A stretch of 64,000 nucleotides of DNA from Deltaproteobacteria bacterium (GCA_016931625.1 JAFGEK010000219.1:24124-88123), one strand, 5' to 3'; shown: positions 2,161 through 64,000, counted from the stretch's first letter. A program made the numbers and translations. The notes: generated by a model from the letters alone, not told the origin.

Positions 2161-2497
2161 ATTATGACAATTGATTTTTATATAGATGCACCAAAAACTA
2201 GTTGCACATAGTGACCAAGTGTATAAGCACTTATTTGTCGCAACGCAGCATTTATATTATCTGCCGATTATCTGGATCTTAAAAAACTGCTCAAAATCAA
2301 TCAAACTCATGCGATCTTGCAATACTGAAGGCAATTTGTGCACCACTTGCGTCATTAATATATTTTGTGATATTAATATTTTTTTTAATGGATTATATGA
2401 TTGACAAAATAGTAATAAATTGTCGTTATATTACAAGCGAATATAAAGCATACTGGTACTTTAAAACCGGTACGAGTTAATAAGAAAGAAGAATGAT

Positions 2498-3745
2498 ATG
2501 GCTTCTGTTCAAAGTTCTAGTAGCGCACATGATGCTATTTTTAGGCAAATGGGTGTATATAACTTTGCATTTCCATCGACACCTCCGGGATTGGCAAAAA
2601 CAAAAGATTCAACAGATCACCCTTATCCGTGGTCTACTGATTACATCGCAATCGATCTAAACAACCTTCCATCATATGAGAATGAATACATACAGGCAAT
2701 TTATTCAACTTTAATAAATAATAAATACAATAAATATGCAAAGTTTGAAGATATCGTCACTACCACAGAAGCGCGTAATGCTATCATAACTAATGCTAAG
2801 AAGGCCCCAGATATTGAAATCGTACTCACTTGCTGCCAAAGCTATTCGCTCTTATGGAATAACAGCCTCGCTATCTTTCTCTGCGGGAAACTATCAGAAG
2901 ATGTCTTACCCGGCACTGGTGCGATAAATAACAATAGAGTTGCTGCATCCTTTATAGCTTGGGCTGATGTTGAGTTATGGTGGCGTCACTGGGCCAGTTA
3001 TAATAAAAATAATGATGGTCAAGTGCCAGATTGGAAAGAGAAGTATCAAGAAACTTGGGCTGAGAAGCTAGAAGAAATTCCTGATTTTTGGCAAGATGTA
3101 CTCGACGCTGAAGATAATTCAGATGAAGAAGTGAAACGTTTTGATAAATTAAAAAAAGCCAGCGAGTTGTTTGGGTCTCTTATAATGGCCCTGGTAGAAT
3201 ACCCTGAATCAGAAGAACTTTTAAGTGCCCTAGATGCCTTTTGCAAAAAGCAAAGTTACGCGGTTAGGTATGGTGTTAATTTAGCAGAAGAAGAGACCAA
3301 AGAAGACAATATTAAAGTAATGGAAGATATTCGCGCGGCTTGTAAAATTGAAAACAAGCAAGAACGCCTAGATGCCCTGAGCCGCATCGCTTTTCATACC
3401 AATGCTAATTTCGATATCACAGACCTTTGTGAAGAAATGGAGACGAAATTAGGGGAATTAGATGATATTAGGAAAGAAGAAGATGTAACAGCGCAACGTC
3501 ATGCTAAAGAGTACATCAACCCTGCGATTGTGAAAAAACTCAGCATTCAAGAATCTAGCGCTTCGGTAGGAGTATGTTTAAGCTCCAGAAATTTTGAAGG
3601 GCGAAATACCACAACGTCTAAAAACGTAAATTTCTATAATGCATTAGGCCGCCGCCAATCCATCAACGATCACCGAAATGCTTCTAATATATTCATCAAA
3701 GTTGAAAATCCTAGATTCAAGCACAACACCAAGACAACTCATTAA
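2498..3745 (+). CDS. Hypothetical acidic cytoplasmic protein (no recognisable family)
   Basis: 415-aa ORF preceded by aagaaagaag (purine-rich RBS-like) and a ~390-bp AT-rich spacer. No signal peptide. The central part is Glu/Asp/Lys-rich and looks helical. Confidence 0.55.
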   Translation: MASVQSSSSAHDAIFRQMGVYNFAFPSTPPGLAKTKDSTDHPYPWSTDYIAIDLNNLPSYENEYIQAIYSTLINNKYNKYAKFEDIVTTTEARNAIITNAKKAPDIEIVLTCCQSYSLLWNNSLAIFLCGKLSEDVLPGTGAINNNRVAASFIAWADVELWWRHWASYNKNNDGQVPDWKEKYQETWAEKLEEIPDFWQDVLDAEDNSDEEVKRFDKLKKASELFGSLIMALVEYPESEELLSALDAFCKKQSYAVRYGVNLAEEETKEDNIKVMEDIRAACKIENKQERLDALSRIAFHTNANFDITDLCEEMETKLGELDDIRKEEDVTAQRHAKEYINPAIVKKLSIQESSASVGVCLSSRNFEGRNTTTSKNVNFYNALGRRQSINDHRNASNIFIKVENPRFKHNTKTTH

Positions 3746-3770
3746 GAAAAATTAGCGCTAAAACGCTATA

Positions 3771-3971
3771 TCACGGCGAGGTATATCTCTTTAGCCTATA
3801 TCTTTGCACTAAATCTCTTCTTTGTTCCTCGGGCAGCGAAAAGAGGTAGGCTCTAAAACCGGGGCACCACCCTGCATGCCACCGCCAAAACCTTCCCAGC
3901 AGCGATTGAGGTCGGGCTTCATATTTTGCTCTGAACTTGCAACTCTCGCATCCCATTTCTGGCATAGGCAT
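3771..3971 (-). CDS. Small conserved Cys/Trp-rich protein (CxxC...WRWH..WCPG motif), function unknown
   Basis: 66-aa ORF with a strong AAGGAG RBS 5 nt upstream of the ATG. The motif CESCKFRAKY...GRFWRWHAGWCPGF resembles a small-protein family I recall from anaerobic bacteria. Its GC looks higher than the surroundings by eye. Confidence 0.6.
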   Translation of the reverse strand: MPMPEMGCESCKFRAKYEARPQSLLGRFWRWHAGWCPGFRAYLFSLPEEQRRDLVQRYRLKRYTSP

Positions 3972-4115
3972 ATCTCCTTAAAAAAATATTAGCACTCGTT
4001 CTACTAGATTTTTACCCTAATGTTACCTACGATGTTACCATAAATTGTGCTTGGCTTAAGGCTCTATAGATTGATATCTTCTTAATCATCTCACTCATTT
4101 ATATGGATAACTAGC

Positions 4116-5009
4116 ATGATATATAAATCTATTATATTTATATTTATTATACTTATATCCCCTTTTACAATAGCAGCGCCACTGCAACCAACAACAAAGC
4201 AAGATAATCCAACAGGTGCCAAAATTACTCGTGAAGGTTCTGCTAGACGACTCTTGCTTCGCAGGTTAGGCAAAGGTTGGAAAATCTCGGTACGCACCGC
4301 AAGTTGTGCAAGTGTTTGTACTTCTGGAGTTATTTTTTCAGGTGAAAATCAAAAAATGCGCATTCCTAAAGCCGAAATTAACCCATTAAGCAATGCTAAT
4401 TTCGCACATTTTACTTATTGCTTATGCCCATTTGCTCTTGCAAAGCCTAATCAAATGGCGCAACCGGCTTATCCTGAACTAAATTTAGAAAGTGAAACTG
4501 TACGCGCCTATGGTTATGCAGATATTCCCGAAACGCCCCAAGGTAAAAAAGTACTTAGTATACTTCATGAAGAGTTAGGCCTAAGGTGGGGCGCTGCTAA
4601 TTCAGTTGGCCTGCATTGTCGCATCGAAATACAGGCAAATAAAGTACACCGAAAAAAATCAATACCACTAAAGCTATTTATACATAATATCAGCGATAAA
4701 TCTGTAAATGTGGTTGATACGATTAATCAACCCAATGGTGCGGGCTTTACAATTAGCCTGGAAGACCACGAAATTGATGCAACTTATGCCGCAAGTGCTG
4801 CAAAGTATATACTACTAGAATCAGGTCAAACTTATAGTCGTGAAATCGCTATAGCCAAATATGAGCCACAACCACCGGATGATAGCAAGTATGGCAAAGC
4901 TAAAAAGTTTGAAATTTATACAACTTACTCAACACAACCCAAATTATCAAACGGTGACTTGCCCAATGATGTTATTTCTTGCCCACCAATATCTTTTATT
5001 CTACGCTGA
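4116..5009 (+). CDS. Hypothetical secreted protein
   Basis: 297-aa ORF with an N-terminal hydrophobic signal-like segment (IIFIFIILISPFTIAAP). No family recognised. Confidence 0.5.
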   Translation: MIYKSIIFIFIILISPFTIAAPLQPTTKQDNPTGAKITREGSARRLLLRRLGKGWKISVRTASCASVCTSGVIFSGENQKMRIPKAEINPLSNANFAHFTYCLCPFALAKPNQMAQPAYPELNLESETVRAYGYADIPETPQGKKVLSILHEELGLRWGAANSVGLHCRIEIQANKVHRKKSIPLKLFIHNISDKSVNVVDTINQPNGAGFTISLEDHEIDATYAASAAKYILLESGQTYSREIAIAKYEPQPPDDSKYGKAKKFEIYTTYSTQPKLSNGDLPNDVISCPPISFILR

Positions 5010-5632
5010 TATATACTTAGTACATATTTTTAAAATAAACGCTGTCATCTCCTGTCCTGTTTAGGGAAAGCAAAGCGGTGTGAAATGACAGGCTTTATTA
5101 TTTCGCCTTTTTTATAAATTCACGTTTAAAATATTCTCTTTTTATCCGAGGATCTATCTTTAACGCTTTCTTATAAAGCATAGCAAATTATTATATTTTA
5201 ATAGAAATTTATTGCGATAGAGAAGAGATGGCTCGATTTCCATGGGTGATGATGCTGACTTTTCTGCGGTTGGTGGTGGTGGTTTCTTGATAAAAATTGG
5301 ATGCGAATAAACCCCATTAAAAAACTTTGCAATCATCCCGTTTCTATCAACTTTATTTGCCATTTTAATATCCTGCAATTGCAATTTCAGTTTTAAGCTT
5401 AGCTTAATTTTCGGCAAATAAACGAACGAGTTGCTTAAAAAAACACCAGCGGCAGCGCTCGATACTAATAGCGCTATCACTTTGTAGTAGCAAGCCACTC
5501 ATCAACCAGCGCTTTGGGTCAATGACTGAACATACGAACACAAATTTTATGCTTCAGTGTCATCAACATCACCAAAGAATAATTCTTCCATATGCCCGCG
5601 TAAAACTGCTTGACCATAAGGTTCAGCCGGAT

Positions 5633-6559
5633 TTATTTGGTAATTGGCTTAACTGATGGCAAAAGCACAACTTCGATACGTCGATTTTTATGCCTACCTG
5701 CTGCAGTACGATTGCTTGCTGATGGACGATATTCAGAAAAACCCGCGGCAACTAAACGGCGTCCTGGCACTTTGATTTCATCTTGCAAAAACCGTACAAC
5801 ATTGGTCGCACGTGCAGTTGATAAATCCCAATTACTAGCAAAAAGTTTATGCAGTTTTGGTGATATCGGAATATTGTCAGTATGACCACCAACTTGAATA
5901 ATTTTATCTTTAATTTTTAAAAAGGTTTCTCCAACCTTTTTAAGAACCGCTTTACCTTTAGAATTTAACTCAGCCTCACCAGAATCAAATAAAATTTGGT
6001 CACTAACATCGACTACTAATTCACCGGCGCGTTGATTAATGAGTACTTCGCCCTTTTTTATTTCTTCTTGTAATTTTTGCGAAAGCTCATCTTGAGTTTT
6101 GCTCAACTCCGCAAGGACTTGGTCTTTTTTATCGACGGCATTTTGCAGTGAAGCGGCAGCGGTTTTTAATTCATTAATTTGCTCAGCTAATTTTGTATTT
6201 TCACTTCGAGCAATTACCAGATCATCAGCCTGCTGTTTAATTTGCTCAGCTAAAGGCAAGTAATAGAAAAATATAAAAGCACCGGCACCAATCAGTAATA
6301 AAATCGTTATTAGCCATGGTACCGGGTTTGATTTACGACGAATTTTATAAGTCGGTATTTCAGCAGATGATAAATCACCCATATCAAACTGCTGGCGTTG
6401 TGGCTCAGGTGATATCTCTGATGGCAATGAATCTGGGGGTGATTCACTCGTATTAGGCACCGAGATTGGTGCTGGGGCATTTTGACCTTCAGGAGCACTT
6501 GACATTACTGTCGGATCCCATGCTTCGCGACTTTTATAATCAGCCATACGCACCTCCAC
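5633..6559 (-). CDS. OmpA/MotB-family protein with TM anchor and coiled-coil
   Basis: The C-terminal OmpA-like peptidoglycan-binding motif is GGHTDNIP...NWDLSTARATNVVRFL...NRRIEVVLLP. There is a single TM segment (WLITILLLIGAGAFIFFYY) followed by a coiled-coil. The start may be the ATG 4 codons downstream (MADYK). Confidence 0.85.
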   Translation of the reverse strand: MEVRMADYKSREAWDPTVMSSAPEGQNAPAPISVPNTSESPPDSLPSEISPEPQRQQFDMGDLSSAEIPTYKIRRKSNPVPWLITILLLIGAGAFIFFYYLPLAEQIKQQADDLVIARSENTKLAEQINELKTAAASLQNAVDKKDQVLAELSKTQDELSQKLQEEIKKGEVLINQRAGELVVDVSDQILFDSGEAELNSKGKAVLKKVGETFLKIKDKIIQVGGHTDNIPISPKLHKLFASNWDLSTARATNVVRFLQDEIKVPGRRLVAAGFSEYRPSASNRTAAGRHKNRRIEVVLLPSVKPITK

Positions 6560-6624
6560 AAATAACGGTCGTTTTTATCTAAAAGCTTGTCTACCAAAGT
6601 CTAGCTCGAATTTGAGATTAAATC

Positions 6625-6873
6625 TTAAATTAAAATAAAAAACAAACCCGCGGTCACCAAAGCTATTACTGAAAGCACCACAATTAACCGTAACATTGAT
6701 TTAGTGCCTGCATTTTGTGGTACACGACCAATTAGTCGCTCGGCTTCTTGTACTATCTGTCTGGTGCTAGGAGGACGTTTGCGACGATTACTTTTCTCTG
6801 CATTTTTAGAACGTAGAGCTTCACCTGTTTGAATCAAATGTTCGGTAGAATCTTTATGTTTGCTTGGGCACAT
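6625..6873 (-). CDS. Small basic protein with C-terminal TM anchor (hypothetical)
   Basis: 82-aa ORF co-directional with and between the GT4 and OmpA-like genes. C-terminal hydrophobic helix LIVVLSVIALVTAGLFFILI. Confidence 0.4.
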   Translation of the reverse strand: MCPSKHKDSTEHLIQTGEALRSKNAEKSNRRKRPPSTRQIVQEAERLIGRVPQNAGTKSMLRLIVVLSVIALVTAGLFFILI

Positions 6874-9330: not shown

Positions 9331-10557
9331 ATGGATGAGATGAGGGAACGCATAGTCGCCGCTGCCAAAAGACAGCGAAATCGTTGTACTGAATTTACGC
9401 GCGAGCTAATCTCGATTGCGTCACATAGCAGGCAAGAAGAAGCCATAGCCATGCATGTACGCCGCGAGATGCTAAAGCTTGGCTATCACGACGCTGATGT
9501 TGATCGTTTTGGCAATGTCGTTGGTCGTATCGGAGATGGTCGTACTCGTATTATTTACGATGCCCATCTTGATACTCCTGGTATTGGCGATCGTAGCTCT
9601 TGGCGTTTTGATCCATATTCCGGCGATATGAAAGCTGGCAAAATTTATGGTCATGGCGCTGCCAACAACAAAGGTGGTCTTGCTGCTATCGTTTGCGCAG
9701 GTGGTATCATTCGCGATCTTGATCTCGCCAATGACTGCACAATTTATGTCATTGGCTCAATTCAATCTGAAGAATGCGAAGGTTTAGCCTATAAAGCTTT
9801 ATTTGATGTTGAAAAGCTTTATCCACACTTTGTCGTTCTTTCAATGCCAACTGGCATGCGCATATGTCGTGGGCAACGCGGACGCGCTGAAATACAAGTG
9901 ACAATGCGCGGTCAACCTGTACATGCCTCAATGCCTGAAAAAGGTTTTAATGCCATCTATGGCATGAGTAAAATCATTGATGGTGTGCAAAAGCTCAATC
10001 AAAGCTTACCTTCTGATCCTTTCTTAGGAAAAGCTACGGTGGCTGTTACTCATATTGAATGCGATTCTACTGGGGCTAATATGCTGCCAGAATCATGTCG
10101 CATTATTATTGATCGGCGTATGCTACCTAACGATCAAGTTAAACGAGTAATTATGCAAATTAAAGAACTTGCTCGTGGCTCTCGGGCTAAGGTTGAGATT
10201 GCTGCATACGACAAACCAAGCTATCGTGGTTTGCGCTTACCTATGGAAAAATATTTCCCCACTTGGGTACTGCCAGAAAATCATCCTCTTATTGATGCTG
10301 CCGAAGGTGCATATAAGAGTGTTTTCAAGAAAAAACCTCTGATCGATCGTTGGACCATGTCTACCGCAGGGGTTTATACCATGGGTATTGCTAAAGTACC
10401 TACCATTGGATTTGGCCCTTCTGAAGAAAGCTTTTCAGGCCCAATTAACGACCATGTACGTATAGATGATTTAGAAAAATGTATGTCTTTTTATGCCACG
10501 CTACCGGGTTATCTACCAGATACCGAGCCTATTAAAATTCCACGACGAAGACGATAA
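9331..10557 (+). CDS. M20-family metallohydrolase, YgeY-like
   Basis: 408 aa. From memory it aligns along its length to E. coli YgeY (RGQRGRAEIQV..., IDRRMLPND, YFPTWVLPE.H, ...TIGFGP). Confidence 0.85.
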   Translation: MDEMRERIVAAAKRQRNRCTEFTRELISIASHSRQEEAIAMHVRREMLKLGYHDADVDRFGNVVGRIGDGRTRIIYDAHLDTPGIGDRSSWRFDPYSGDMKAGKIYGHGAANNKGGLAAIVCAGGIIRDLDLANDCTIYVIGSIQSEECEGLAYKALFDVEKLYPHFVVLSMPTGMRICRGQRGRAEIQVTMRGQPVHASMPEKGFNAIYGMSKIIDGVQKLNQSLPSDPFLGKATVAVTHIECDSTGANMLPESCRIIIDRRMLPNDQVKRVIMQIKELARGSRAKVEIAAYDKPSYRGLRLPMEKYFPTWVLPENHPLIDAAEGAYKSVFKKKPLIDRWTMSTAGVYTMGIAKVPTIGFGPSEESFSGPINDHVRIDDLEKCMSFYATLPGYLPDTEPIKIPRRRR

Positions 10558-10609
10558 ATTTTAATCGAAAATTTGGCTTATTCGTGCCGACAACTATATT
10601 ATATAGATT

Positions 10610-54289: not shown

Positions 54290-55609
54290 ATGACGCATAA
54301 CAAATACCCCGTTATTATTATTGGTGCAGGTATTACTGGTTTAGCAGCAGCACATGTGTTGGGTAAAAATTGCTGTGTTGTTGAACAAGAAAAAGAAGTA
54401 GGTGGTCTATTACGTTCTTTTACTCGTCATGGTTGTACTTTTGATATTACTGGTCATTGGCTGCATTTTCGTGATCGGCAAATTAAACAATTTGTACAAG
54501 ATATATTAGGGGATAATTTAATAAATATAGAGCGTCGCGCTTCTATTTATAGCAATGGCATCACCACCCCTTACCCCTTTCAGGCTAATACTTTTGGCCG
54601 ACCCGCTTCAGTTATTGCTGACTGTTTATTAGGTTATTTTGCCGCTCGTGAAAAATGCCCTCCGGCTGATACAACCAATAATCAAAATTCATTTGCAGAT
54701 TTCATTAATAACAAGCTTGGTTATGGTTTCGCCAAACATTTTATGACTCCATACAATACCAAGTTGTGGACAGTGCCTCCCAATGAATTTGATGCACGCT
54801 GGTGTGAACGATTTATCCCAACCCCTACTCCAGAAGAAGTAATATATGGCGCACTAGAACCAAGCGGCGCTGGGCATCGTCTTGGTTATAATGCGCAATT
54901 TTTATACCCAAAAAATGGAGGCATCGCACAATTAGTAAAAAAACTTAAAAATAAATGTACCGGCGCAATTTATACTGAAAGTACTGTAGTAAAAGTTGAT
55001 TGGAATAAACAACAACTAATCACCGCTAACGGTGAAGTGTTTGAATATAATAGTTTAATTTCAACAGCGCCACTTGATGCCTTAATAAATATGTTAATAG
55101 AACCACCCAATATAGTTATTGATGCCGCAAAAAACTTACGGGCAGCAAGTGTTACTTATTGGGATGTTGTTCTGGCAAATAAAAACCAAGCAAATGATGC
55201 GCATTGGACGTATTATCCTGATGCCGAAATAGCATTTTATCGCGTGGGTTCTCCATCGGCAGTATTGCCTTCACTTGCCCCGGGCTGCCGCACACTATGT
55301 GTTGAACTTAGTCATCCTCGCGGTTCAAACATAACTGTGACTACAGATAATATAATAGCAAGCTTACGTGCTGTTGGCCTGATAGCCAAAGATGAAACGC
55401 CAATATTATGTGAGCAAAATACTATTGAATGCGCTTATGTAATTATGGACCATAATTATGGTAAGTCTCGCAACAACGTTTTTGATTGGCTTAAAAATAA
55501 TAAAATTTTTTCAATAGGTCGCTATGGTAGTTGGACTTATGATTCAATGGAAGGTGCTATATTTGAAGGGCTGCAAACTGCAAAAGAAATATTGATCAAT
55601 TTTTGCTAA
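54290..55609 (+). CDS. FAD-dependent oxidoreductase (amine oxidase/protoporphyrinogen oxidase/UDP-galactopyranose-mutase-like fold)
   Basis: N-terminal dinucleotide-binding motif VIIIGAGITGLAAAHVL...VVEQE...GG. 439 aa. Confidence 0.75.
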   Translation: MTHNKYPVIIIGAGITGLAAAHVLGKNCCVVEQEKEVGGLLRSFTRHGCTFDITGHWLHFRDRQIKQFVQDILGDNLINIERRASIYSNGITTPYPFQANTFGRPASVIADCLLGYFAAREKCPPADTTNNQNSFADFINNKLGYGFAKHFMTPYNTKLWTVPPNEFDARWCERFIPTPTPEEVIYGALEPSGAGHRLGYNAQFLYPKNGGIAQLVKKLKNKCTGAIYTESTVVKVDWNKQQLITANGEVFEYNSLISTAPLDALINMLIEPPNIVIDAAKNLRAASVTYWDVVLANKNQANDAHWTYYPDAEIAFYRVGSPSAVLPSLAPGCRTLCVELSHPRGSNITVTTDNIIASLRAVGLIAKDETPILCEQNTIECAYVIMDHNYGKSRNNVFDWLKNNKIFSIGRYGSWTYDSMEGAIFEGLQTAKEILINFC

Positions 55610-56616
55610 TAAGGCGGTGGACAATACCACCATAACCATACCAACAGTAATAAACCTAAAAAAATCACACCTGCACCAAGTACTAAAGCTATATTTAATG
55701 TACTTTCAATCATAATAAATCCAATAGCCGCGCCAGCAATGCCCACCAAGTAAGTTGTTAAAGCAATTTGCCGTGCTGACCAACCACGATGTTGCAAACG
55801 CAAGGCAAAATGATCGCCACTACCATGCCATGGTGCAGCTCGGCGCACGATACGTGCCAAACTAACTAAAGCCATTTCTAAAATGGGAATAAATAATAAA
55901 ACTCCTGGCACAATTATACTAGCAATGTTTTGCCGTGTATAAGCGGCAATCATTGATAGTGCCGCCAGCATAAAACCAACTAAGAGACTACCAGCATCAC
56001 CGAGATAAATACGCGCTTTGGGAAAATTAAATTTTAAAAAACCAATAAGACTACCAGCAAGGGCCACAGCAGTGGTGGCAACTAGAATGTTGCCATTTCG
56101 CCATGCGATCCATCCTAAGGCCAATGCTGCAATCGCACCTACACCTGAGGCAAGACCGTCGGCAACATCTATAATATTAACAGCATTAGTTATGAAAACT
56201 AACCACAATACTGTAACTAAGTAGCTTAAACCTTCTGGCAATATTTCAAGTTGTACTGCAATACCGCTTTTAATAAGCACGAATGCCGCTAAAAATTGCC
56301 CGGCTAGTTTTAGCCAAGGCGGCAGCACCTTCATATCATCAAATAGACCAAGCATTACCATTATTGTGCTGCCAAGCAATAAACCCAATAGATAAGCGCT
56401 AAACTCATAAATTATGGCTAGGGTTATAAGAAAGGTGAGATAAATCGCTATACCACCTAAATATGGTATTGGTTCATGCTGACGCTTGAGCTTACCATCA
56501 GGATGATCAAGCACACCAAAACGCATTGCACCCTGGCGTACAATAGGAGTGAGATAAAGACTTAAAACTATGGCAAAAGTAAATGTTACGAATAAATGCA
56601 AGATACCTTGAGGCAT
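55606..56616 (-). CDS. Polyprenyl-phosphate N-acetylhexosamine-1-phosphate transferase (MraY/WecA GT4 family)
   Basis: Polytopic. Motifs LFDDMK, NAVNIIDVADGLA and YLGDAGSL. The ATG at 56616 overlaps the upstream stop (TGATG). Confidence 0.85.
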   Translation of the reverse strand: MPQGILHLFVTFTFAIVLSLYLTPIVRQGAMRFGVLDHPDGKLKRQHEPIPYLGGIAIYLTFLITLAIIYEFSAYLLGLLLGSTIMVMLGLFDDMKVLPPWLKLAGQFLAAFVLIKSGIAVQLEILPEGLSYLVTVLWLVFITNAVNIIDVADGLASGVGAIAALALGWIAWRNGNILVATTAVALAGSLIGFLKFNFPKARIYLGDAGSLLVGFMLAALSMIAAYTRQNIASIIVPGVLLFIPILEMALVSLARIVRRAAPWHGSGDHFALRLQHRGWSARQIALTTYLVGIAGAAIGFIMIESTLNIALVLGAGVIFLGLLLLVWLWWYCPPPY

Positions 56617-57401
56617 CAAATAGCCTTTCGGCGAGCAAATAAAATAATGGCTAATACTAAGGCACAACTAGCATATGCAAAAGCATAAACGGTCGCAAAA
56701 AAAGTAAAGGCCGCTGGCACCGCTAAATTATTGGCAGCTTGCAAACGTAACGATAGTGCTTGTAAATCTGGAAGTACTGCATGGGCAGCATATAAAAACC
56801 AACTAAATATCGGAGAGCTATCAATAAGCTTGTCAGCAAGTAAGACTATATCGTTAGTGAAGTTCCCAGCGACTACTACAGTAATGCTATAAGTGGCTGC
56901 AAAAACTGGGGAGGCAAAGCATGAAAATAAAAGAGACAAAGCTGTAACCACAATCATTTCAAGACAAGCAAGCCAAATGCTTGCAGCAAAAGCTTGCGGC
57001 AATTTATCACCGTACATCCACACGGCTAATGCTGTAGCAAACAACAGCAAGAGCACAATCATAACCATAGTCGTTAGCACGCCGATGTATTTGCCAAGAA
57101 CGAAAGCGCTTCGTGGCAGAGGTCGTGCTAATACCGGATAAGCGCTATGGCGCTCTAACTCACGACCAAAAGAGATAATCATAAGCGCGACCGCCATTAA
57201 ACTACCCATGGCACTTGCAGCAGCTAAACCAACATCCACAATAAGGCGCGCTCGTTCACCCATTGAGACTGCCGCTAGCGTTACCGAAAAACCTACCAAA
57301 GCTACACCAAACATAACAGCAACAACCAAAATACGATTACGTATTGATTCTAAAAAAGTTGTTATGGCAATGGCTAGGGTAGCTGAAAAATATCGTCTCA
57401 T
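56616..57401 (-). CDS. ABC-2-type transporter permease (PilI-like position)
   Basis: 261 aa with ~6 TM segments. It overlaps the ATPase gene stop by 4 bp. Confidence 0.75.
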   Translation of the reverse strand: MRRYFSATLAIAITTFLESIRNRILVVAVMFGVALVGFSVTLAAVSMGERARLIVDVGLAAASAMGSLMAVALMIISFGRELERHSAYPVLARPLPRSAFVLGKYIGVLTTMVMIVLLLLFATALAVWMYGDKLPQAFAASIWLACLEMIVVTALSLLFSCFASPVFAATYSITVVVAGNFTNDIVLLADKLIDSSPIFSWFLYAAHAVLPDLQALSLRLQAANNLAVPAAFTFFATVYAFAYASCALVLAIILFARRKAI

Positions 57402-58339
57402 AACGCACTTGCCTCAATCTTATTAAGCGATTCTGCTACAAAGACCTCTTCAAGTGAACGCCGCTGCGTCTGCACCGCCACTATTTGCGCTTGTGCTTTT
57501 CGTAATGTATCAATGATTTGATTAGCCGCATCGCTGTTTTGCGCCACAAAAACATCTGCATCAAAACGCTGGCTGCTCACTAGCGCTAAAGCGGCGGCGG
57601 CTTGACGAGCTTTTTTATTGCAGCCTTGAGCGATAATTTCAACACTCGCAGCAGTTTCTTCAAGTAAAGTATCAATAGTACCTAACTTTCGTACACTACC
57701 CTCAACTAGTATAGCCACCCGATCACAAATTGATTCGACATCAGGCAAAATATGGGTTGAAAAAAATACTGTTTTACCTGCAGCTTTTAAATTTAACATG
57801 ATCTGCCGCACATCGTGCCTGCCGATGGGGTCAAGTCCACTCATTGGTTCATCAAGAATCACTAGCTCAGGCTCAGCTATTAGTGATTGGCCTAAACCAA
57901 CACGTTGTTGCATTCCCTTTGACATGCCCCCCAAACGTTCATGCGCTACAGCGCGCATGCCAACAAGTTCTAAAACTTTATCAATACGCTGTAACGATTG
58001 TTTGGGCGATAAACCAGCAAGTATGCCGTGTAACAATAATAATTCATGCGCACTAAGATACTCAGGAAAATATGCACGTTCAGGCATAAAACCAATACGC
58101 TTGCGTGTTGCTACTTGCGTTACTGGTGCGCCAAAAATCTGCACCACCCCCTTTTTAGGTTTAAGCAAACCTAATAACGCTTTAATGGTAGTGGTTTTAC
58201 CGGCACCGTTTGGCCCTAAAAATCCAAATATTTCACCTGGGGCTACATTAAAACTGACCCCGCGTAAAACGGTTTTACGTCGTGACCAAAAATGCGGCTG
58301 GACACAATAATGTAAGTCTTCAATCAAAATCGGATTCAC
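57398..58339 (-). CDS. ABC transporter ATP-binding protein (PilH-like position)
   Basis: Walker A GPNGAGKTT, signature MSKGMQQR and Walker B LVILDEP. Confidence 0.9.
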   Translation of the reverse strand: MNPILIEDLHYCVQPHFWSRRKTVLRGVSFNVAPGEIFGFLGPNGAGKTTTIKALLGLLKPKKGVVQIFGAPVTQVATRKRIGFMPERAYFPEYLSAHELLLLHGILAGLSPKQSLQRIDKVLELVGMRAVAHERLGGMSKGMQQRVGLGQSLIAEPELVILDEPMSGLDPIGRHDVRQIMLNLKAAGKTVFFSTHILPDVESICDRVAILVEGSVRKLGTIDTLLEETAASVEIIAQGCNKKARQAAAALALVSSQRFDADVFVAQNSDAANQIIDTLRKAQAQIVAVQTQRRSLEEVFVAESLNKIEASAL

Positions 58340-58342
58340 TAT

Positions 58343-59194
58343 TTAAAGATCCTCTTTTTGTTTATGAACACGCAAGCGTTTGTCGTCGTTGCTGCTTTGT
58401 ACCCTACCTTGAGAATTGATAAAAAATTTACCCCCTAAAACTTCCTTAGGAATACTTCTTAAAAGCCCTGGTGCAATAAGCTCATTAATACTCTGTGGTC
58501 GGCGACCATTTCTTTTACTAAATAAATCAGCAATACGATTAAGTTCGCGCAGTTGTAATTCAAAAATGAGCAGTTGGCGACGCTCAAGATATTCTTGACG
58601 TAATTTCTCATCGGTTATGCCTTCAAGTAATGAATCAACTAACGCGATCCCTACTTCGGGGGCGCCCCCTTCTGCTGCAAGGCGAGCCGCCAATGGCCCG
58701 GTAATCGGTGGAGCAGCCGCAAACTTTGCTGCAGCAGCTAAAGCTTTTGCACCACCAATATAATCACCTAAAAAATAATAACGATTAAATCCTAATAAAA
58801 AAGGTAAGCGCCAATCATTGGGGCAATATTTTTGCCCACGTTCAAGAAACGTAACCGCAACTTTTATATCCATGCCTTTAACGGTTAGGGCCGTACCGGC
58901 AAAAAAATAGGCGCTATCAAAGTAAGGATCGAGTTCAGTAATGCGGTAAATAAACGGTTCAAGATTTGGATAAGACCACTTGTGCATGCCTTTGTCGCCA
59001 AAATGCGACAACGCGCGTAACCAATAATAATCGGCAACGACTGAACGATAACCCATGCTTAAAATATTTAAGGCGCGCATTGAAGGCAGTGCTTCGTGTG
59101 GCGAGGTGGGCATGGGTAATTTTTGCTCATGCAAATTGCTATGAATAAAACCGGTGATAATAACGCCTATAATAAAAACCACTAGCAATCGCAC
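58343..59194 (-). CDS. Membrane-anchored helical-repeat protein (PilG-like position), hypothetical
   Basis: N-terminal TM segment. TPR-like helical content. It lies 3 nt upstream of the ABC ATPase gene. Confidence 0.55.
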   Translation of the reverse strand: MRLLVVFIIGVIITGFIHSNLHEQKLPMPTSPHEALPSMRALNILSMGYRSVVADYYWLRALSHFGDKGMHKWSYPNLEPFIYRITELDPYFDSAYFFAGTALTVKGMDIKVAVTFLERGQKYCPNDWRLPFLLGFNRYYFLGDYIGGAKALAAAAKFAAAPPITGPLAARLAAEGGAPEVGIALVDSLLEGITDEKLRQEYLERRQLLIFELQLRELNRIADLFSKRNGRRPQSINELIAPGLLRSIPKEVLGGKFFINSQGRVQSSNDDKRLRVHKQKEDL

Positions 59195-59223: not shown

Positions 59224-59643
59224 TTATTGGTTAGTAACAAATCCCTCACTGAAAGCTGCATCAGCTAATCGTTTATCAAAAGTATGAAAAACTCGACCAG
59301 TTGGTTCACCAGCCCATACTAAAGCAGCTGCTAACTGTAAGGCATCAGCCGCTTTTAAGCTGTGCGTACATAATAACCGTACGGCTAAAGGTTTAACTTT
59401 TTCAACATCAATTACCATACGACATGAAGCTATGAGTTCATCGGCTCGTTTAGTTACATGCATTAATTGTTGCATATCAACAATACCTTCGCGATATCGC
59501 CGCTGCAAGGCCGAGATAATTTCTATTGGGGTTAAAGTCCAAACAACAATAGCTGCATCTTCATGCAACCATGATTTTGTTTTAATCGTAAATTTTTCTT
59601 TTATTAACAAAGGAACCAATGCTGATGTATCCCAAAACCTCAC
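59224..59643 (-). CDS. vapC: PIN-domain toxin (VapC family)
   Basis: MRFWDTSALVPLL ... SLKAADALQLAAAL ... FHTFDKRL. It overlaps the antitoxin gene by 4 bp. Confidence 0.88.
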   Translation of the reverse strand: MRFWDTSALVPLLIKEKFTIKTKSWLHEDAAIVVWTLTPIEIISALQRRYREGIVDMQQLMHVTKRADELIASCRMVIDVEKVKPLAVRLLCTHSLKAADALQLAAALVWAGEPTGRVFHTFDKRLADAAFSEGFVTNQ

Positions 59644-59936
59644 TGTTCACTCTCATCACGTTCTGCTAACACCGCATCTACAAGATTTAACTCCAATGAT
59701 GATATTTGTTTAAGCCATTTGGATGACAGCACTTTTAAGGGAGGGCGTAAAACCCCTGCATTTTCTAGTTCTACAATTCTTGCATCTTCAGTGCCCAAAC
59801 GATCAGTATTAGATGCCGGTGTTAGCTTTGCTATTACATGATTTCGATCACGCACTAATACGATTTCACCGCGCCGCACACGTTTTAAGTATTTGCTAAG
59901 ATTGTTTTTAAGCTCGGCGGTACCAATTGAAATCAT
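59640..59936 (-). CDS. Phd/YefM-type antitoxin
   Basis: ISIGTAELKNNLSKYLKRVRRGEIVLVRDRNHVIAKLTP. Confidence 0.85.
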   Translation of the reverse strand: MISIGTAELKNNLSKYLKRVRRGEIVLVRDRNHVIAKLTPASNTDRLGTEDARIVELENAGVLRPPLKVLSSKWLKQISSLELNLVDAVLAERDESEQ

Positions 59937-59990: not shown

Positions 59991-60431
59991 TTAAGTGCCG
60001 TTAGCCACATTGGTTAAATTATTAGCATTATCGATTGTCCACGTGTCACAAGAACTTAAGTTATGAGCAGCACCGGTGGTAAACGCCGTTGTTGATTGAG
60101 AACCCGACCCCGCAGGTTTAGTGGTGCAAGTAGCATCTGCTGATGATAAATCGTTAGTGCCGTCTACCCAGTAATTATATTTATAGTTAGCTTCTGGCGA
60201 CCAACCGCAAAGGCCACATACATAGGTACTACGCTCAGCATAATTAGCTTTGGCAGAAGTAAAAAAGGCTTTAAGATTAGCTTTGGCTTCTGATTGTTTG
60301 GCTCTATTTTGAAACTTGGCAAAATTCGGTATGGCAATAGCTGCAAGAATACCAATAATGGCAACAACAATCATAATCTCGATCATTGTAAAACCGCGTT
60401 CTATTTTATGAAGCATAAGTTTCTTTTTCAT
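59991..60431 (-). CDS. pilA: Type IV pilin (class III signal peptide), paralog 1
   Basis: KIERGFTMIEIMIVVAIIGILAAIAIPNF (G/F cleavage site, Glu+5). The C-terminal region has Cys pairs. The ATG at 60431 was chosen over the longer ORF-track start. Confidence 0.93.
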   Translation of the reverse strand: MKKKLMLHKIERGFTMIEIMIVVAIIGILAAIAIPNFAKFQNRAKQSEAKANLKAFFTSAKANYAERSTYVCGLCGWSPEANYKYNYWVDGTNDLSSADATCTTKPAGSGSQSTTAFTTGAAHNLSSCDTWTIDNANNLTNVANGT

Positions 60432-60513
60432 TGCGTTACCTACAATCTTCATAAGGCAGTGTATGTTTGCAAGTGGCCTCATTGTGGACCAACTTTCACC
60501 TACATTCAACCAT

Positions 60514-60528
60514 GCAACAACAATACCA
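60514..60528 (-). promoter_or_regulatory. Sigma-54-type -24/-12 promoter upstream of pilin paralog 1
   Basis: The minus strand reads TGGTAT-tgttg-TTGCA (consensus TGGCAC-N5-TTGCW), ~83 nt upstream of the ATG. Confidence 0.6.
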
Positions 60529-60590
60529 AAAAATTAAATATCTCGAACACGTAAATTCAACAAATTAAGCCACCATACGCCTTGAAATAC

Positions 60591-60629
60591 TGACGTATTT
60601 TGTCACTCGCCTTTTTTATACTGACAATC
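60591..60629 (-). promoter_or_regulatory. Putative enhancer-binding-protein (PilR-like) sites: TGAC-N7-GTCA plus ctgacaatc
   Basis: tgacgtattttgtca at 60591-60605 and ctgacaatc at 60621-60629. The same two elements occur with the same spacing upstream of paralog 2. Confidence 0.5.
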
Positions 60630-60700
60630 CACGTCCATAAAGCTGTTTGGTGTAAAAAGAGCTTAAGATTGAACTTATGCAACCATTAATTCTCTTGCTT

Positions 60701-62608
60701 CTATTCTGAAGAATTAAGAGTGTTAAATATTCTAGCTGATTCTTTATCAAGCGCTAGTATTGCTTTGGCGCGGCCTTGATATCTCTGGGCTGCATTTTGC
60801 GCTAAAACAATTTTTAAGGTAAGCTCACCTATGCGTGCAATATCTTGTTCACGCTTTGCTTGCAGTGCCAATTGCACTAAAGCACGTGCACAATATGGTT
60901 CTTCAATTATGGCATTTTTATAGGCAACAAGCGCTTTATCTAATCGACCACTTTCTTGATAAGCATTGCCTAAATTCCAATAGGTAAGTGCATTATGCGG
61001 TTCGCCAAGTAGCGCCAATTGATAAAGGCGAATAAGTAATTCGTTGGCGACAGTATGAGGCAAGTGGACTCGCTCATTTTCAATAATCATTGCCGCGAGT
61101 AACAAAGGCTTAGGGTTAAGCGGAAATCTCTGTGCTAATTCACTTAAGTCTTCAGCAAATTCAATGGCTGATTTACCATTTTGGCGACTAAATTGTTGGT
61201 ATTGCAATGCAGCCCCTAAACTCCAAGGTGTAATTTTACTGGCCCAAGCAGCAACTTTTTCAGCTCTGCTTGTATTACCTTGTTTGGCGAAATAAGTGGC
61301 ACTTGTTTCTAAAAGTTGGCCAATTGCACCGGGGATGGCGAAAACTAAAACTAGTAGCGAGATAAAACGCAATGGCAGCAACTTCACCAAAGACACCTGA
61401 ACACTTATTTTTTGCTTTGGTGCTATAGCTTTTTGTTCTTGATAGCGAAAACGCGTCAACTCGGCCGCCCATATGGCCGCAAAAAATGCAATTACTGAAA
61501 CATGCAAAGTTGCGCCGAATAAAGCCGGAATACCAAAAGCAAACAACATTGCAGCATCATAACTAGCTTGTTGTTTTTGCTTAGTATCATCTGCGCGCAA
61601 ATTTGAAATTATATTAAATAATACCCAGATAATTGGTAGTAATACTGCCAAAAGACCAAACCAACCGAGTTCAACCCAAATATTTAATAACTCATTATGT
61701 GCATCACTAGCTAAACGTGGGTAGCGCACCATGCCATTATCAATACGAATGCCATGATGGCGCATGGCTGCTTCATAATTACCTAAACCTACACCAATTG
61801 GAGATTCGGCTAAGGCTAACTCAGCACTTGAGCGCCAAATAGCAAGACGCGAATACGCATAAGGATCGCTAGTGCTCTGCCAACGAGACTTGAATGTTGG
61901 TACCAAAAAAACAGCAAGCAAGGCTATGACAACCGCAGCTATGGTTAAACGGCATAAGCCGCGCATGAAAGTATACGCCAATAGAGATACCGCTAGGGCC
62001 AACCAACCGGATCGTGACTGTGTGCTTACCATTGCAATCAACAAAATTAAAAATACTACTGCCAATACTTTTCGCTGAGAGCTAGTTGAAAAAAAACGAT
62101 GGACAATAATCACTATTGCCGGACACAAAAAGGCTGCTAATTCATTAGGATTAAAAAAACCTGCAGTTGCTCGCCCGCCAATAAATACAAATTGAGCAAT
62201 AGCCCAAAATGCATGCAACATGGCGACCACCACCAAAGCGTTGAGCAACCTTTGATTAATAAAAGCGGGGCTACAGTTTAGTGCACCATAAAGCGCTACT
62301 ACTAATACCACCGTAATTAATGCTTGCAGCGCAAGACCAAAATTTACTGCAAAGATTAAACCTAATAACACTGTCATTACCGCCACCAAGGGTGGCAGTA
62401 TTTCGTACCAGCATAGTGAAAATGCCTTGATGCAATATAACGAAATGGTCTTGAAAATAACTAAAACCGCAGCCGCACGTAAAAAGAAAGCTGGTATATG
62501 TTCAGTCGCACCGTTGATCGCGGTGCAGCAAAATGCACTTAATGCAAAGACACCAATCCACCAAGGTATGGTACGAAGTATAAGATAGCCTTGATGGATT
62601 GGTGTCAA
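60701..62608 (-). CDS. O-antigen-ligase-family (Wzy_C) polytopic membrane protein with C-terminal TPR domain; candidate pilin O-glycosyltransferase
   Basis: STQSRSGWLALAVSL and DAHNELLNIWVELGWFGLL (Wzy_C signature region). C-terminal TPRs (YWNLGNAYQESGRLDKALVAYKNAIIEEP). TTG start, uncertain. Confidence 0.8.
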   Translation of the reverse strand: MTPIHQGYLILRTIPWWIGVFALSAFCCTAINGATEHIPAFFLRAAAVLVIFKTISLYCIKAFSLCWYEILPPLVAVMTVLLGLIFAVNFGLALQALITVVLVVALYGALNCSPAFINQRLLNALVVVAMLHAFWAIAQFVFIGGRATAGFFNPNELAAFLCPAIVIIVHRFFSTSSQRKVLAVVFLILLIAMVSTQSRSGWLALAVSLLAYTFMRGLCRLTIAAVVIALLAVFLVPTFKSRWQSTSDPYAYSRLAIWRSSAELALAESPIGVGLGNYEAAMRHHGIRIDNGMVRYPRLASDAHNELLNIWVELGWFGLLAVLLPIIWVLFNIISNLRADDTKQKQQASYDAAMLFAFGIPALFGATLHVSVIAFFAAIWAAELTRFRYQEQKAIAPKQKISVQVSLVKLLPLRFISLLVLVFAIPGAIGQLLETSATYFAKQGNTSRAEKVAAWASKITPWSLGAALQYQQFSRQNGKSAIEFAEDLSELAQRFPLNPKPLLLAAMIIENERVHLPHTVANELLIRLYQLALLGEPHNALTYWNLGNAYQESGRLDKALVAYKNAIIEEPYCARALVQLALQAKREQDIARIGELTLKIVLAQNAAQRYQGRAKAILALDKESARIFNTLNSSE

Positions 62609-62643
62609 TTAGCAACAATTAAGAGATAATTAAGTTACGTTGG

Positions 62644-63069
62644 TTAGGTGCCATTTGCTACATTGGTTAAGTTATTGGCATCATCAATTGTCCAGGTGTC
62701 ACAAGTACTCAAGTTATGAGCAGCACCTGTGGTAAACGCCGTTAGTGACTGAACACCCGATCCTGCTGGTTTAGTAGTGCAGGTAGTATCGGCTCCAGTT
62801 AAATCAACGCTGCCATCTACATAGTAATTATACTTATAACCCGACTCGGGTGCCCAACCGCAAAGACCACATACAAAGGTGCTATCCTCAGCGTAATTTG
62901 CTTTAGCTGAAGTGAAGAACGCTTTGAGGTTTGCTTTGGCCTCTGATTGTTTGGCTCTATTTTGGAATTTGGTAAAATTAGGAATGGCAATGGCTGCCAG
63001 AATGCCAATGATTGCTACAACAATCATTAGCTCGATAAGAGTAAAGCCGCGAGCTAATTTACGTACCAT
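62644..63069 (-). CDS. pilA: Type IV pilin, paralog 2
   Basis: KLARGFTLIELMIVVAIIGILAAIAIPNF. By eye, a large majority of residues are identical to paralog 1. AAGGAG RBS before the ATG at 63069. Confidence 0.93.
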   Translation of the reverse strand: MVRKLARGFTLIELMIVVAIIGILAAIAIPNFTKFQNRAKQSEAKANLKAFFTSAKANYAEDSTFVCGLCGWAPESGYKYNYYVDGSVDLTGADTTCTTKPAGSGVQSLTAFTTGAAHNLSTCDTWTIDDANNLTNVANGT

Positions 63070-63167
63070 GTGATGTCTCCTTTTACGCTCTGTTGCAAAC
63101 AACCATCACCGTGAAGGTTGTTGTTGCTTGTGTCACTTTGAACCAACTTAGACTTAGGTTCAACTAA

Positions 63168-63182
63168 GCAACTACAATGCCA
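63168..63182 (-). promoter_or_regulatory. Sigma-54-type -24/-12 promoter upstream of pilin paralog 2
   Basis: The minus strand reads TGGCAT-tgtag-TTGCT, ~100 nt upstream of the ATG. Confidence 0.7.
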
Positions 63183-63294: not shown

Positions 63295-64000
63295 ATGATT
63301 TATTTCCCGAATTGGTTGTTATTAACGTATGTTAGTGTAGTCGGCGCCGTGGTTGGATCATTTTTAAATGTAGTCATTGCGCGTCTACCCGCAGGTGAAT
63401 CTATTGTATCGCCACGATCACACTGCCCAAAATGCCGCAGTCAAATTGCTTGGTACGACAACATTCCCGTGCTTAGCTGGCTTATTTTGCGTGGTCGTTG
63501 TCGCTCATGCAAAGCTACGATATCACCGCGCTATCCCTTAATAGAATTATTAGCTTGCGCTTTAATGACTGCCTTATTTTTACGTTTGGGAGTTACCTGG
63601 CAATTTGCTTTTTGGGCGCCACTCTCCATGGTTTTTTTAGCCATTGTATTTCTCGATATTGATCATTATTGGATACCTGATCTCTTAAGTATTCCGGCAA
63701 TGATTTGGGCATTGCTGGGTGCCTTTTTACCTGACCGTATTGGTATAATTGCTGCTCTTATTGGACTACTTCCCGCGCTTGCATTATTTCTTATCGCCAA
63801 AATTTTTAGTGCCATGATGCATCGTGAGGGAATGGGATTAGGTGATGTTAAGCTTTTGGCGGTAATCGGGTTGGCGCTTGGAGTTTTTCCAACCATCCTG
63901 GTAGTTTTATTTGCTTCGCTGCAAGGCACTATTATCGGCTTAATTATAATAGCTCTTGGTGGTCATAAGCCTAAAGAACCAGCAGCAGATGGTTGGACTC
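63295..64000 (+). CDS. pilD: Prepilin peptidase/N-methyltransferase PilD (A24 family); 3' end runs off the window
   Basis: This is my own translation, since the ORF is absent from the track (no stop in the window). MIYFPNWLLLTYVSVVGAVVGSFLNVVIARLP...SHCPKCRSQIAWYDNIPVLSWLILRGRCRSCKATISPRYPLIELL...REGMGLGDVKLLA. Confidence 0.92.
   Translation, partial: MIYFPNWLLLTYVSVVGAVVGSFLNVVIARLPAGESIVSPRSHCPKCRSQIAWYDNIPVLSWLILRGRCRSCKATISPRYPLIELLACALMTALFLRLGVTWQFAFWAPLSMVFLAIVFLDIDHYWIPDLLSIPAMIWALLGAFLPDRIGIIAALIGLLPALALFLIAKIFSAMMHREGMGLGDVKLLAVIGLALGVFPTILVVLFASLQGTIIGLIIIALGGHKPKEPAADGWT

Follow-up and report, generated by a model that had tools for sequence, protein, structure and literature searches.

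In the 64,000-nucleotide stretch of Deltaproteobacteria bacterium DNA analysed here (GCA_016931625.1 JAFGEK010000219.1:24124-88123; hereafter the window), a gene for a membrane protein of the O-antigen ligase family with a C-terminal TPR domain, here called the ligase, lies between two type IV pilin genes, pilin-2 on its 5' side and pilin-1 on its 3' side. The ligase-type enzyme is a good candidate for a new kind of pilus-glycosylating enzyme, and its pairing with pilins recurs in several phyla. Comparison with related sequences suggests an active WaaL-like transferase that would serve as an accessory of the pilus operon, use a lipid-linked glycan donor and most likely O-glycosylate the major pilin or pilins in the periplasm, a proposal to which we give an even chance. 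Three lines of evidence bear on it: the family, fold and active site of the ligase, its linkage to pilus genes across genomes, and its co-inheritance with a gene for a WecA-like polyprenyl-phosphate sugar-1-phosphate transferase that follows the pilG-, pilH- and pilI-like genes of the same locus. An earlier note on this DNA had proposed a pilin O-glycosylation locus, and its coordinates for pilin-2, the Wzy_C/TPR gene and pilin-1, the shared direction of the three genes and the 35-bp gap between the pilin-2 stop codon and the ligase start are exact (Table 1).

Assignment of the ligase to the O-antigen ligase family is borne out by hidden Markov model search, with a match to Wzy_C (PF04932) at 65.6 bits against a cut-off of 31.7 and matches to TPR_1/TPR_2 at residues 540-571. 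Residues 9-393 form a 12-helix, WaaL-like core of the GT-C fold that carries the Wzy_C domain, followed by a basic loop (393-406), a 13th helix (407-423) and a TPR domain of 212 residues (424-635). The AlphaFold2 (AF2) model, built on 20 homologues, has a mean predicted local distance difference test score (pLDDT) of 87.9 and a predicted template modelling score (pTM) of 0.88. Foldseek with the whole model returns mostly TPR proteins, and a wide fold search independent of Foldseek places WaaL at the top (7tpj_B, Z 18.4 over 363 residues, root-mean-square deviation 4.8, model residues 9-393). Sequence search of the PDB with the single N-terminal domain as query retrieves nothing relevant; a family profile of that domain finds WaaL (7tpg, E 1.2e-6) as the sole membrane-protein match, and no Wzy_C-family chain other than WaaL appears in the PDB searches. 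In the profile alignment, the motifs SRSG (R199), RxxIW (R254) and AHSE (H304) pair with the corresponding residues of WaaL. These three residues, together with D248, W258 and E313, do not vary among 20 homologues that are only 19-38% identical to the window ligase. The spacing of 50 between R254 and H304 matches that of R288/H338 in WaaL and R298/H349 in PglL (PMC3643930). Sequence and fold comparisons thus support the ligase as a WaaL-fold enzyme of the Wzy_C family with its putative catalytic residues intact.

The TPR domain is predicted to lie in the periplasm from the WaaL topology, from the lysine and arginine count (six on the cytoplasmic side against one on the periplasmic side) and from the basic loop that precedes helix 13. 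A complex prediction for the ligase with mature pilin scored 0.00 and is evidence neither way. In the first predicted periplasmic loop, residues 33-44 carry the motif G-(A/G)-T-x-H-x-P-A/V...R, which is kept from Myxococcota to Nitrospirota (L040, L042, L108, L112) and may be a family-specific piece of the active or acceptor site. The TPR extension, which the earlier note regarded as unusual, turns out to be commonplace: every homologue tested has the Wzy_C and TPR architecture (611-687 amino acids), and the ESM Atlas holds many clusters of this composition in other phyla. Judged from these sequences, the extension appears to be a family trait that is common among uncultured lineages.

Related loci, sought with a 10-sequence alignment of homologues, extend the linkage of ligase and pilin on which the proposal depended well beyond this genome. 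The gene order pilA-ligase-pilG-pilH-pilI, with pilD divergent from pilA, occurs in a further 12 genomes of the same taxonomic order, which span six families and are recorded as Myxococcota or Bdellovibrionales metagenome-assembled genomes (MAGs). The same order is found in the Myxococcota families f15 and f18, in Nitrospirota MAGs and on 22 metagenome contigs. Of 42 other loci, from Myxococcota, Nitrospirota and unassigned metagenome lineages, 33 have a pilin directly 5' of the ligase. Locus L028 has three pilins upstream of the ligase that the distance measure overlooked, and in L017, L029 and L115 the flank is too short to judge pilin adjacency. L043, from an unassigned MAG, is an exception in which the Wzy_C region falls within a 1476-residue open reading frame (2298-6725) 5' of pilGHI; a second, weak Wzy_C match follows pilI there (9803-10576). 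The nearest metagenome relative of pilin-2 (60% identity) sits in a rearranged locus, L099, that has the WecA-like gene, pilI, pilH and pilG on one strand and pilin, ligase and pilD on the other. The literature search returned no paper linking a Wzy_C-TPR protein to pilins and none on pilA with an O-antigen ligase in Geobacter, and a survey of myxobacterial pili makes no mention of such a ligase gene (PMC6060248).

The ligase is an accessory gene of the pilus operon. By profile search, seven genomes of the order have no ligase homologue (G003, G008, G010, G011, G014, G015 and G017, of which five reach 92% completeness or more), and at the five ligase-less loci that were inspected, one to three pilin genes adjoin pilG directly. 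This pattern resembles that of the variable accessory genes 3' of pilA in Pseudomonas aeruginosa. Outgroups carry the ligase in a PilG tree (poorly resolved within the order), so that its absence probably reflects loss, on two or more lineages (f3 and part of f6). In all of the 7 loci of the order that have the ligase and a long enough flank, the WecA-like gene follows pilI directly; at ligase-less loci the count is 0/4. Genome-wide, ligase and WecA-like gene occur together in 11 genomes, are jointly missing from 7 and are discordant in 4, the discordant genomes being 65-88% complete or having a contig that ends at the locus; the genomes are mutually related, and these counts overstate independence. 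The window genome has one other PF00953 gene, a putative mraY. Co-inheritance with the WecA-like gene is the best argument for an active ligase and suggests that it would be fed by a dedicated lipid-linked donor. At three loci with neither gene (L087 in G014, L088 in G003 and L090 in G008), two or three tandem pilins lie directly 5' of pilG, and most ligase-bearing loci have one pilin; tandem pilins and a ligase may be alternative ways to vary the pilus surface.

Known pilin-modifying enzymes, compared here through published descriptions and domain models, resemble the ligase in part. All four known O-oligosaccharyltransferase (O-OTase) families, TfpO, TfpM, PglL and PglS, carry Wzy_C and often adjoin pilins (PMC9829042; PMC3643930). 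TfpO (PilO; P. aeruginosa group I, Acinetobacter) and TfpM (Moraxellaceae) share with the ligase the Wzy_C domain, a conserved His, a co-directional position directly 3' of a pilin gene and an accessory distribution. Both act on a Ser/Thr at the pilin C-terminus, and the substrates of TfpM finish in ...GT (PMC9829042); the window pilins also finish in Thr, a likeness confined to this genome. A terminal Ser/Thr is constant among the pilins of TfpO and TfpM, in contrast to the N-D-V-D/S-x endings of most pilins beside ligase orthologues. TfpO has 440-470 residues and TfpM 420-440 (Table 2 of PMC9829042), in contrast to the 635 of the ligase with its 13th helix and its TPR domain, a domain that none of the four characterised O-OTase families has (PMC9829042). 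PglL (Neisseria) and PglS (Acinetobacter baylyi) are likewise Wzy_C enzymes, of 520-600 residues, and glycosylate an internal pilin Ser; many pglL homologues adjoin one or two pilin genes (PMC3643930). The ligase differs from these two in having no PglL_A or Wzy_C_2 match: neither PglL_A (PF15864) nor PF11846 matches it at E <= 0.01, and PF15864 has no match genome-wide at E <= 0.1. It also has a TPR domain, whereas none is described for PglL or PglS in PMC9829042 or PMC3643930. The kinship that had been drawn with TfpO/TfpM and PglL finds no support in these features: the ligase is without PglL_A and is longer than TfpO/TfpM by an extra domain.

Architecturally, the ligase comes closest to TfpW of P. 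aeruginosa group IV (Pa5196, PA7), a protein of 646 residues whose gene directly follows pilA and whose C-terminal TPR domain is periplasmic (bioRxiv 10.1101/2020.04.19.049825). Both proteins are polytopic, have about 640 residues, follow pilA and end in a periplasmic TPR domain (predicted for the ligase). The cores differ: that of TfpW is of the ArnT/Emb-like GT-C type with a DDX motif and uses D-arabinofuranose, whereas that of the ligase is Wzy_C/WaaL-like, and no ArnT- or PMT-type Pfam family matched in the ligase. On domain content, the ligase appears to join a TfpO-type catalytic family with a TfpW-type architecture. WaaL of Cupriavidus metallidurans (7TPG/7TPJ), the sole solved relative, has a superposable 12-helix fold with Arg/Arg/His aligned. 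WaaL differs from the ligase in its length of about 400 residues, in having no 13th helix and no TPR domain, in acting on lipid A-core and in being normally encoded with lipopolysaccharide (LPS) genes; the RfaL model NF012031 scores the ligase at 20.9 bits against a cut-off of 277, and the neighbours of the ligase are pilus genes.

The surrounding operon resembles the pilA-pilG-pilH-pilI segment of the Myxococcus xanthus pil cluster in gene architecture, with PilG, PilH and PilI likened by order and domains. In both, a pilin gene (here with an N-terminal half like that of Myxococcus-type PilA, at a score below the model cut-off) is followed by genes for a membrane-anchored helical protein, an ABC ATPase and a permease of the ABC-2 type; pilD and histidine kinase genes adjoin, and the pilin promoters are, by prediction here, sigma-54-type. 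Differences lie in the pilins, which are much shorter in the window (133 residues mature), and in the accessory genes: M. xanthus is not known to carry a ligase gene between pilA and pilG or a WecA-like gene 3' of pilI.

Both window pilins terminate in NVANGT, as the earlier note observed; the argument it built on this, a C-terminal Thr as PilO-type acceptor, is undone by the orthologous pilins, which mostly end in N-D-V-D/S-x. Pilins beside orthologous ligases terminate in NDVDN, NDVEKP, NDIQL, NDTDK, NDVDL, NDVSL, NDVSATT or similar, and their final residues include N, P, L, K, A, I, V and others. In the alignment, the window NGT matches the N-D-V/I of other pilins, which extend one to several residues further, and the terminal Thr of the window pilins pairs with the Val/Ile of the N-D-V motif. 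By this comparison, the terminal Thr appears to be a peculiarity of this genome. If the ligase family glycosylates pilin, an internal site in the variable Ser/Thr/Ala/Gly/Pro-rich stretch is more likely than a terminal one, because orthologous pilins do not end in Ser/Thr. C-terminal glycosylation might still occur in this one organism. Pilin tails at ligase-less loci are of the same kind (DDVSL, DDLTN). An acidic N/D-D-V-(D/S)-x tail is conserved across Myxococcota, Nitrospirota and metagenome lineages with the ligase present or absent (L023, L024, L027, L015, L101, L103, L104, L108, L112, L114, L117, L041 and others).

A pathway consistent with these features would begin on the cytoplasmic face, where the WecA-like enzyme, to judge from its family, would load the first sugar on undecaprenyl phosphate. 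A flippase or ABC transporter would then turn the lipid-linked glycan over, and the Wzy_C core of the ligase (R199, R254, H304) would attach it to a Ser/Thr of pilin that is still embedded in the membrane and not yet assembled. The periplasmic TPR domain might recruit the protein substrate, by analogy with the proposal made for the TPR domain of TfpW. In our judgement the chances are about even that the ligase is a transferase of this kind, which would act together with the WecA-like enzyme to place O-glycans on pilin and would represent a new architectural class.

Several observations weigh against this proposal. The pilin is named as acceptor from gene context and analogy, and the most constant neighbour of the ligase is pilG rather than pilA, because one lineage (G018, G020, L098, L100) keeps the ligase between pilD and pilG with its pilin encoded elsewhere. 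(At the G018 and G020 loci, L021 and L022, a PilA-type pilin lies on other contigs, G018:C8 and G020:C3.) No C-terminus, post-helix loop or N-G-S/T motif separates the pilins of ligase-bearing from those of ligase-less loci. The ligase has no PglL_A motif and no match to curated O-OTase models, its gene begins with TTG and shows no clear ribosome-binding site, and the locus holds no further glycosyltransferase or Wzx gene.

Among the alternatives, it is possible, if rather doubtful, that the ligase hands its glycan to a non-pilin acceptor, be it lipid A-core (as a second WaaL), another lipid, or periplasmic or outer-membrane proteins, with its operon position reflecting joint use of surface glycan and pilus. 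The nearest solved relative by both sequence and fold is indeed WaaL, yet the RfaL score falls far below its cut-off and the locus is without LPS-core or O-antigen genes. In M. xanthus, pilus-dependent motility needs LPS O-antigen, a dependence that such joint use would fit, and the ligase travels with its own WecA-like initiating enzyme. The genome has two further Wzy_C genes, one solitary and one within a polysaccharide cluster (Bac_transf priming enzyme, GT1, GT2, aminotransferase), that could serve as WaaL and Wzy; the concern that the ligase might be the only WaaL of this organism, raised in the earlier note, does not apply. The four loci that keep the ligase beside pilD and pilG with no adjoining pilin favour a non-pilin acceptor, but across phyla most loci by far do have a pilin immediately 5' of the ligase. 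Enzymes of the PglL type have many protein targets (PMC9829042), in keeping with acceptors other than pilin, and a TPR domain in the periplasm is easier to reconcile with a protein as partner than with a lipid.

A less probable alternative is that the ligase and the PilGHI ABC transporter make or export a pilus-associated polysaccharide or glycolipid, the ligase acting as a Wzy-like polymerase or coupling enzyme with no protein modified. Pfam Wzy_C spans polymerases and ligases, pilG is immediately 3' of the ligase wherever flank allows and the WecA-like gene closes the same operon, but PilGHI occurs without the ligase in seven genomes of the order, and thus has a core role independent of it; M. 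xanthus presumably also has PilGHI without the ligase. PF01943 finds no Wzx in the 95%-complete genome (PF13440 gives one marginal match, C223, 24.6 bits), so an ABC exporter for the lipid-linked glycan is plausible, and the genome has six ABC2_membrane genes. Yet PilH and PilI resemble DrrA/GldA-type and ABC2_membrane_2 proteins rather than Wzm/Wzt, the locus lacks a chain-length regulator, an outer-membrane export protein and an elongating glycosyltransferase, and hhalign shows no specific relationship between PilG and the TPR domain of the ligase (probability 1.5%). A related extension of the pilin glycosylation proposal, in which PilGHI itself would move the lipid-linked sugar across the inner membrane and the ligase-PilGHI-WecA-like cassette would form a self-contained pathway, is similarly improbable. 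Least credible of all, and in our view very unlikely, is a catalytically idle scaffold or pilus assembly factor that keeps the WaaL fold for structure. The gene does sit inside a pilus operon, and the TPR pilus assembly factors PilF and PilW are among the generic TPR fold matches, but idleness would not account for Arg/Arg/His, D248, W258 and E313 being invariant at 19-38% identity and would leave co-inheritance with a donor-building enzyme unexplained.

The two pilins, the only PilA-type pilins found in the genome, both match Pfam N_methyl and Pilin_PilA, and their best NCBIfam model is the Myxococcus-type NF041775 (PilA_Myxo), which they match over the N-terminal half only (113 and 109 bits, cut-off 400). 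Pilin-2 has the leader MVRKLARG, a mature start at FTLIE, 133 mature residues and four Cys. Identity between the two is 84% at the protein level and 80% at the DNA level. With 1.06 synonymous substitutions per site (dS), 0.098 nonsynonymous substitutions per site (dN) and a dN/dS of 0.09, the duplication is therefore old and under purifying selection, in agreement with the earlier note. That differences concentrate centrally also stands: of 22, 11 fall in residues 61-95, four in the leader, three in the N-terminal helix and four in residues 96-141. Pilin-1 probably supplies a surface-variant subunit.

A block of about 230 bp upstream was duplicated along with pilin-1, and each copy retains a sigma-54-type element. 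The pattern TGGYAT-N5-TTGC has just two matches in the window, one per pilin; both elements are consensus matches only. Gene order indicates that pilin-2 holds the ancestral position beside pilD and that pilin-1 was inserted between ligase and pilG, in this lineage only among the loci examined. The second pilin would then be a later duplicate with its own predicted sigma-54-type promoter. The flanking of the ligase by pilins, as the earlier note described it, is real here and is not a feature of the system: no pilin lies between ligase and pilG at any of 42 other loci. The sandwich arises from a lineage-specific pilin duplication together with a toxin-antitoxin insertion. No terminator-like site was found between pilin-2 and the ligase, and the ligase probably shares a transcript with pilin-2.

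The genome with this locus is a MAG of 4.2 Mb, 95% complete, from an uncultured bacterium, and DNA of the window is present in one sediment metagenome run, probably its origin; the same search listed no RNA run that carries it. The features of the locus are collected in Table 1.

Table 1. Genes and predicted promoter elements of the pilus locus, with positions counted from the first letter of the window.
Feature	Position	Strand	Size and basis
pilin-2 (Myxococcus-type PilA prepilin)	62644-63069	-	141 aa; Pfam, NCBIfam, synteny with single pilins of relatives
Wzy_C/TPR gene (ligase)	60701-62608	-	635 aa; TTG start
pilin-1 (pilin-2 paralogue)	59991-60431	-	146 aa
pilD prepilin peptidase	63295..63999, continuing beyond window end	+	271 aa full; Pfam A24_N_bact and Peptidase_A24
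Sigma-54-type -24/-12 element TGGCAT-N5-TTGC	63168..63182	-	about 99 nt 5' of pilin-2 start
Second sigma-54-type -24/-12 element TGGTAT-N5-TTGC	60514..60528	-	about 83 nt 5' of pilin-1
Phd/YefM antitoxin	59640-59936	-	Pfam
PIN/VapC toxin	59224-59643	-	Pfam
PilG-like protein, N-terminal membrane anchor and TPR-like helical repeat domain	58343..59194	-	AF2 model
PilH-like ABC ATPase	57398..58339	-	Pfam ABC_tran; DrrA/GldA-like in NCBIfam
PilI-like ABC-2 permease	56616..57401	-	Pfam ABC2_membrane_2, 31.4 bits
WecA-like polyprenyl-phosphate sugar-1-phosphate transferase (Glycos_transf_4)	55606..56616	-	PF00953, 121 bits

The pilD gene is divergent from pilin-2, is followed by a histidine kinase gene and has the same position in the loci of relatives. 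On the other side, pilG, pilH, pilI and the WecA-like gene form a tightly packed four-gene set, in which the ATG of the WecA-like gene shares one nucleotide with the TGA of pilI (TGATG). The best NCBIfam model for the WecA-like protein is WecA (97 bits, under cut-off). The PilG-like protein has no Pfam match; its AF2 model (pLDDT 87.2) returns generic TPR fold matches at Z of about 12. Between pilin-1 and pilG lies a Phd/PIN toxin-antitoxin pair, co-directional with the pil operon and with no homologue in the related loci examined, which appears to be an operon insertion outside the conserved cassette. Another PIN-domain gene occurs near the contig end (L127 4341-4763). At 54290-55609 on the plus strand lies a gene for a PRK07208-type oxidoreductase, a flavin adenine dinucleotide-dependent enzyme with weak similarity to UDP-galactopyranose mutase. 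It runs towards the WecA-like gene, the two overlapping at their 3' ends, and is not kept in related loci.

Pilin glycosylation alters pilus surface chemistry, phage susceptibility and adhesion, and TfpO, TfpM, PglL and PglS are working tools for bioconjugate vaccines. To our knowledge, only a handful of Proteobacteria have supplied the pilin O-OTases characterised so far. An enzyme that unites Wzy_C with a periplasmic TPR domain and is kept beside pilins in Myxococcota, Nitrospirota and other uncultured lineages would be a new class, possibly with other acceptor rules. If PilGHI does serve the cassette pathway outlined above, the ligase would stand as a fifth class of pilin O-oligosaccharyltransferase, found in several phyla whose members are mostly uncultured. 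We know of no substrate that has been identified for the PilGHI transporter of Myxococcus-type pili, and the co-inherited ligase and WecA-like genes that flank pilGHI offer a testable idea about its cargo: a cassette pathway, if true, would give PilGHI a biochemical role.

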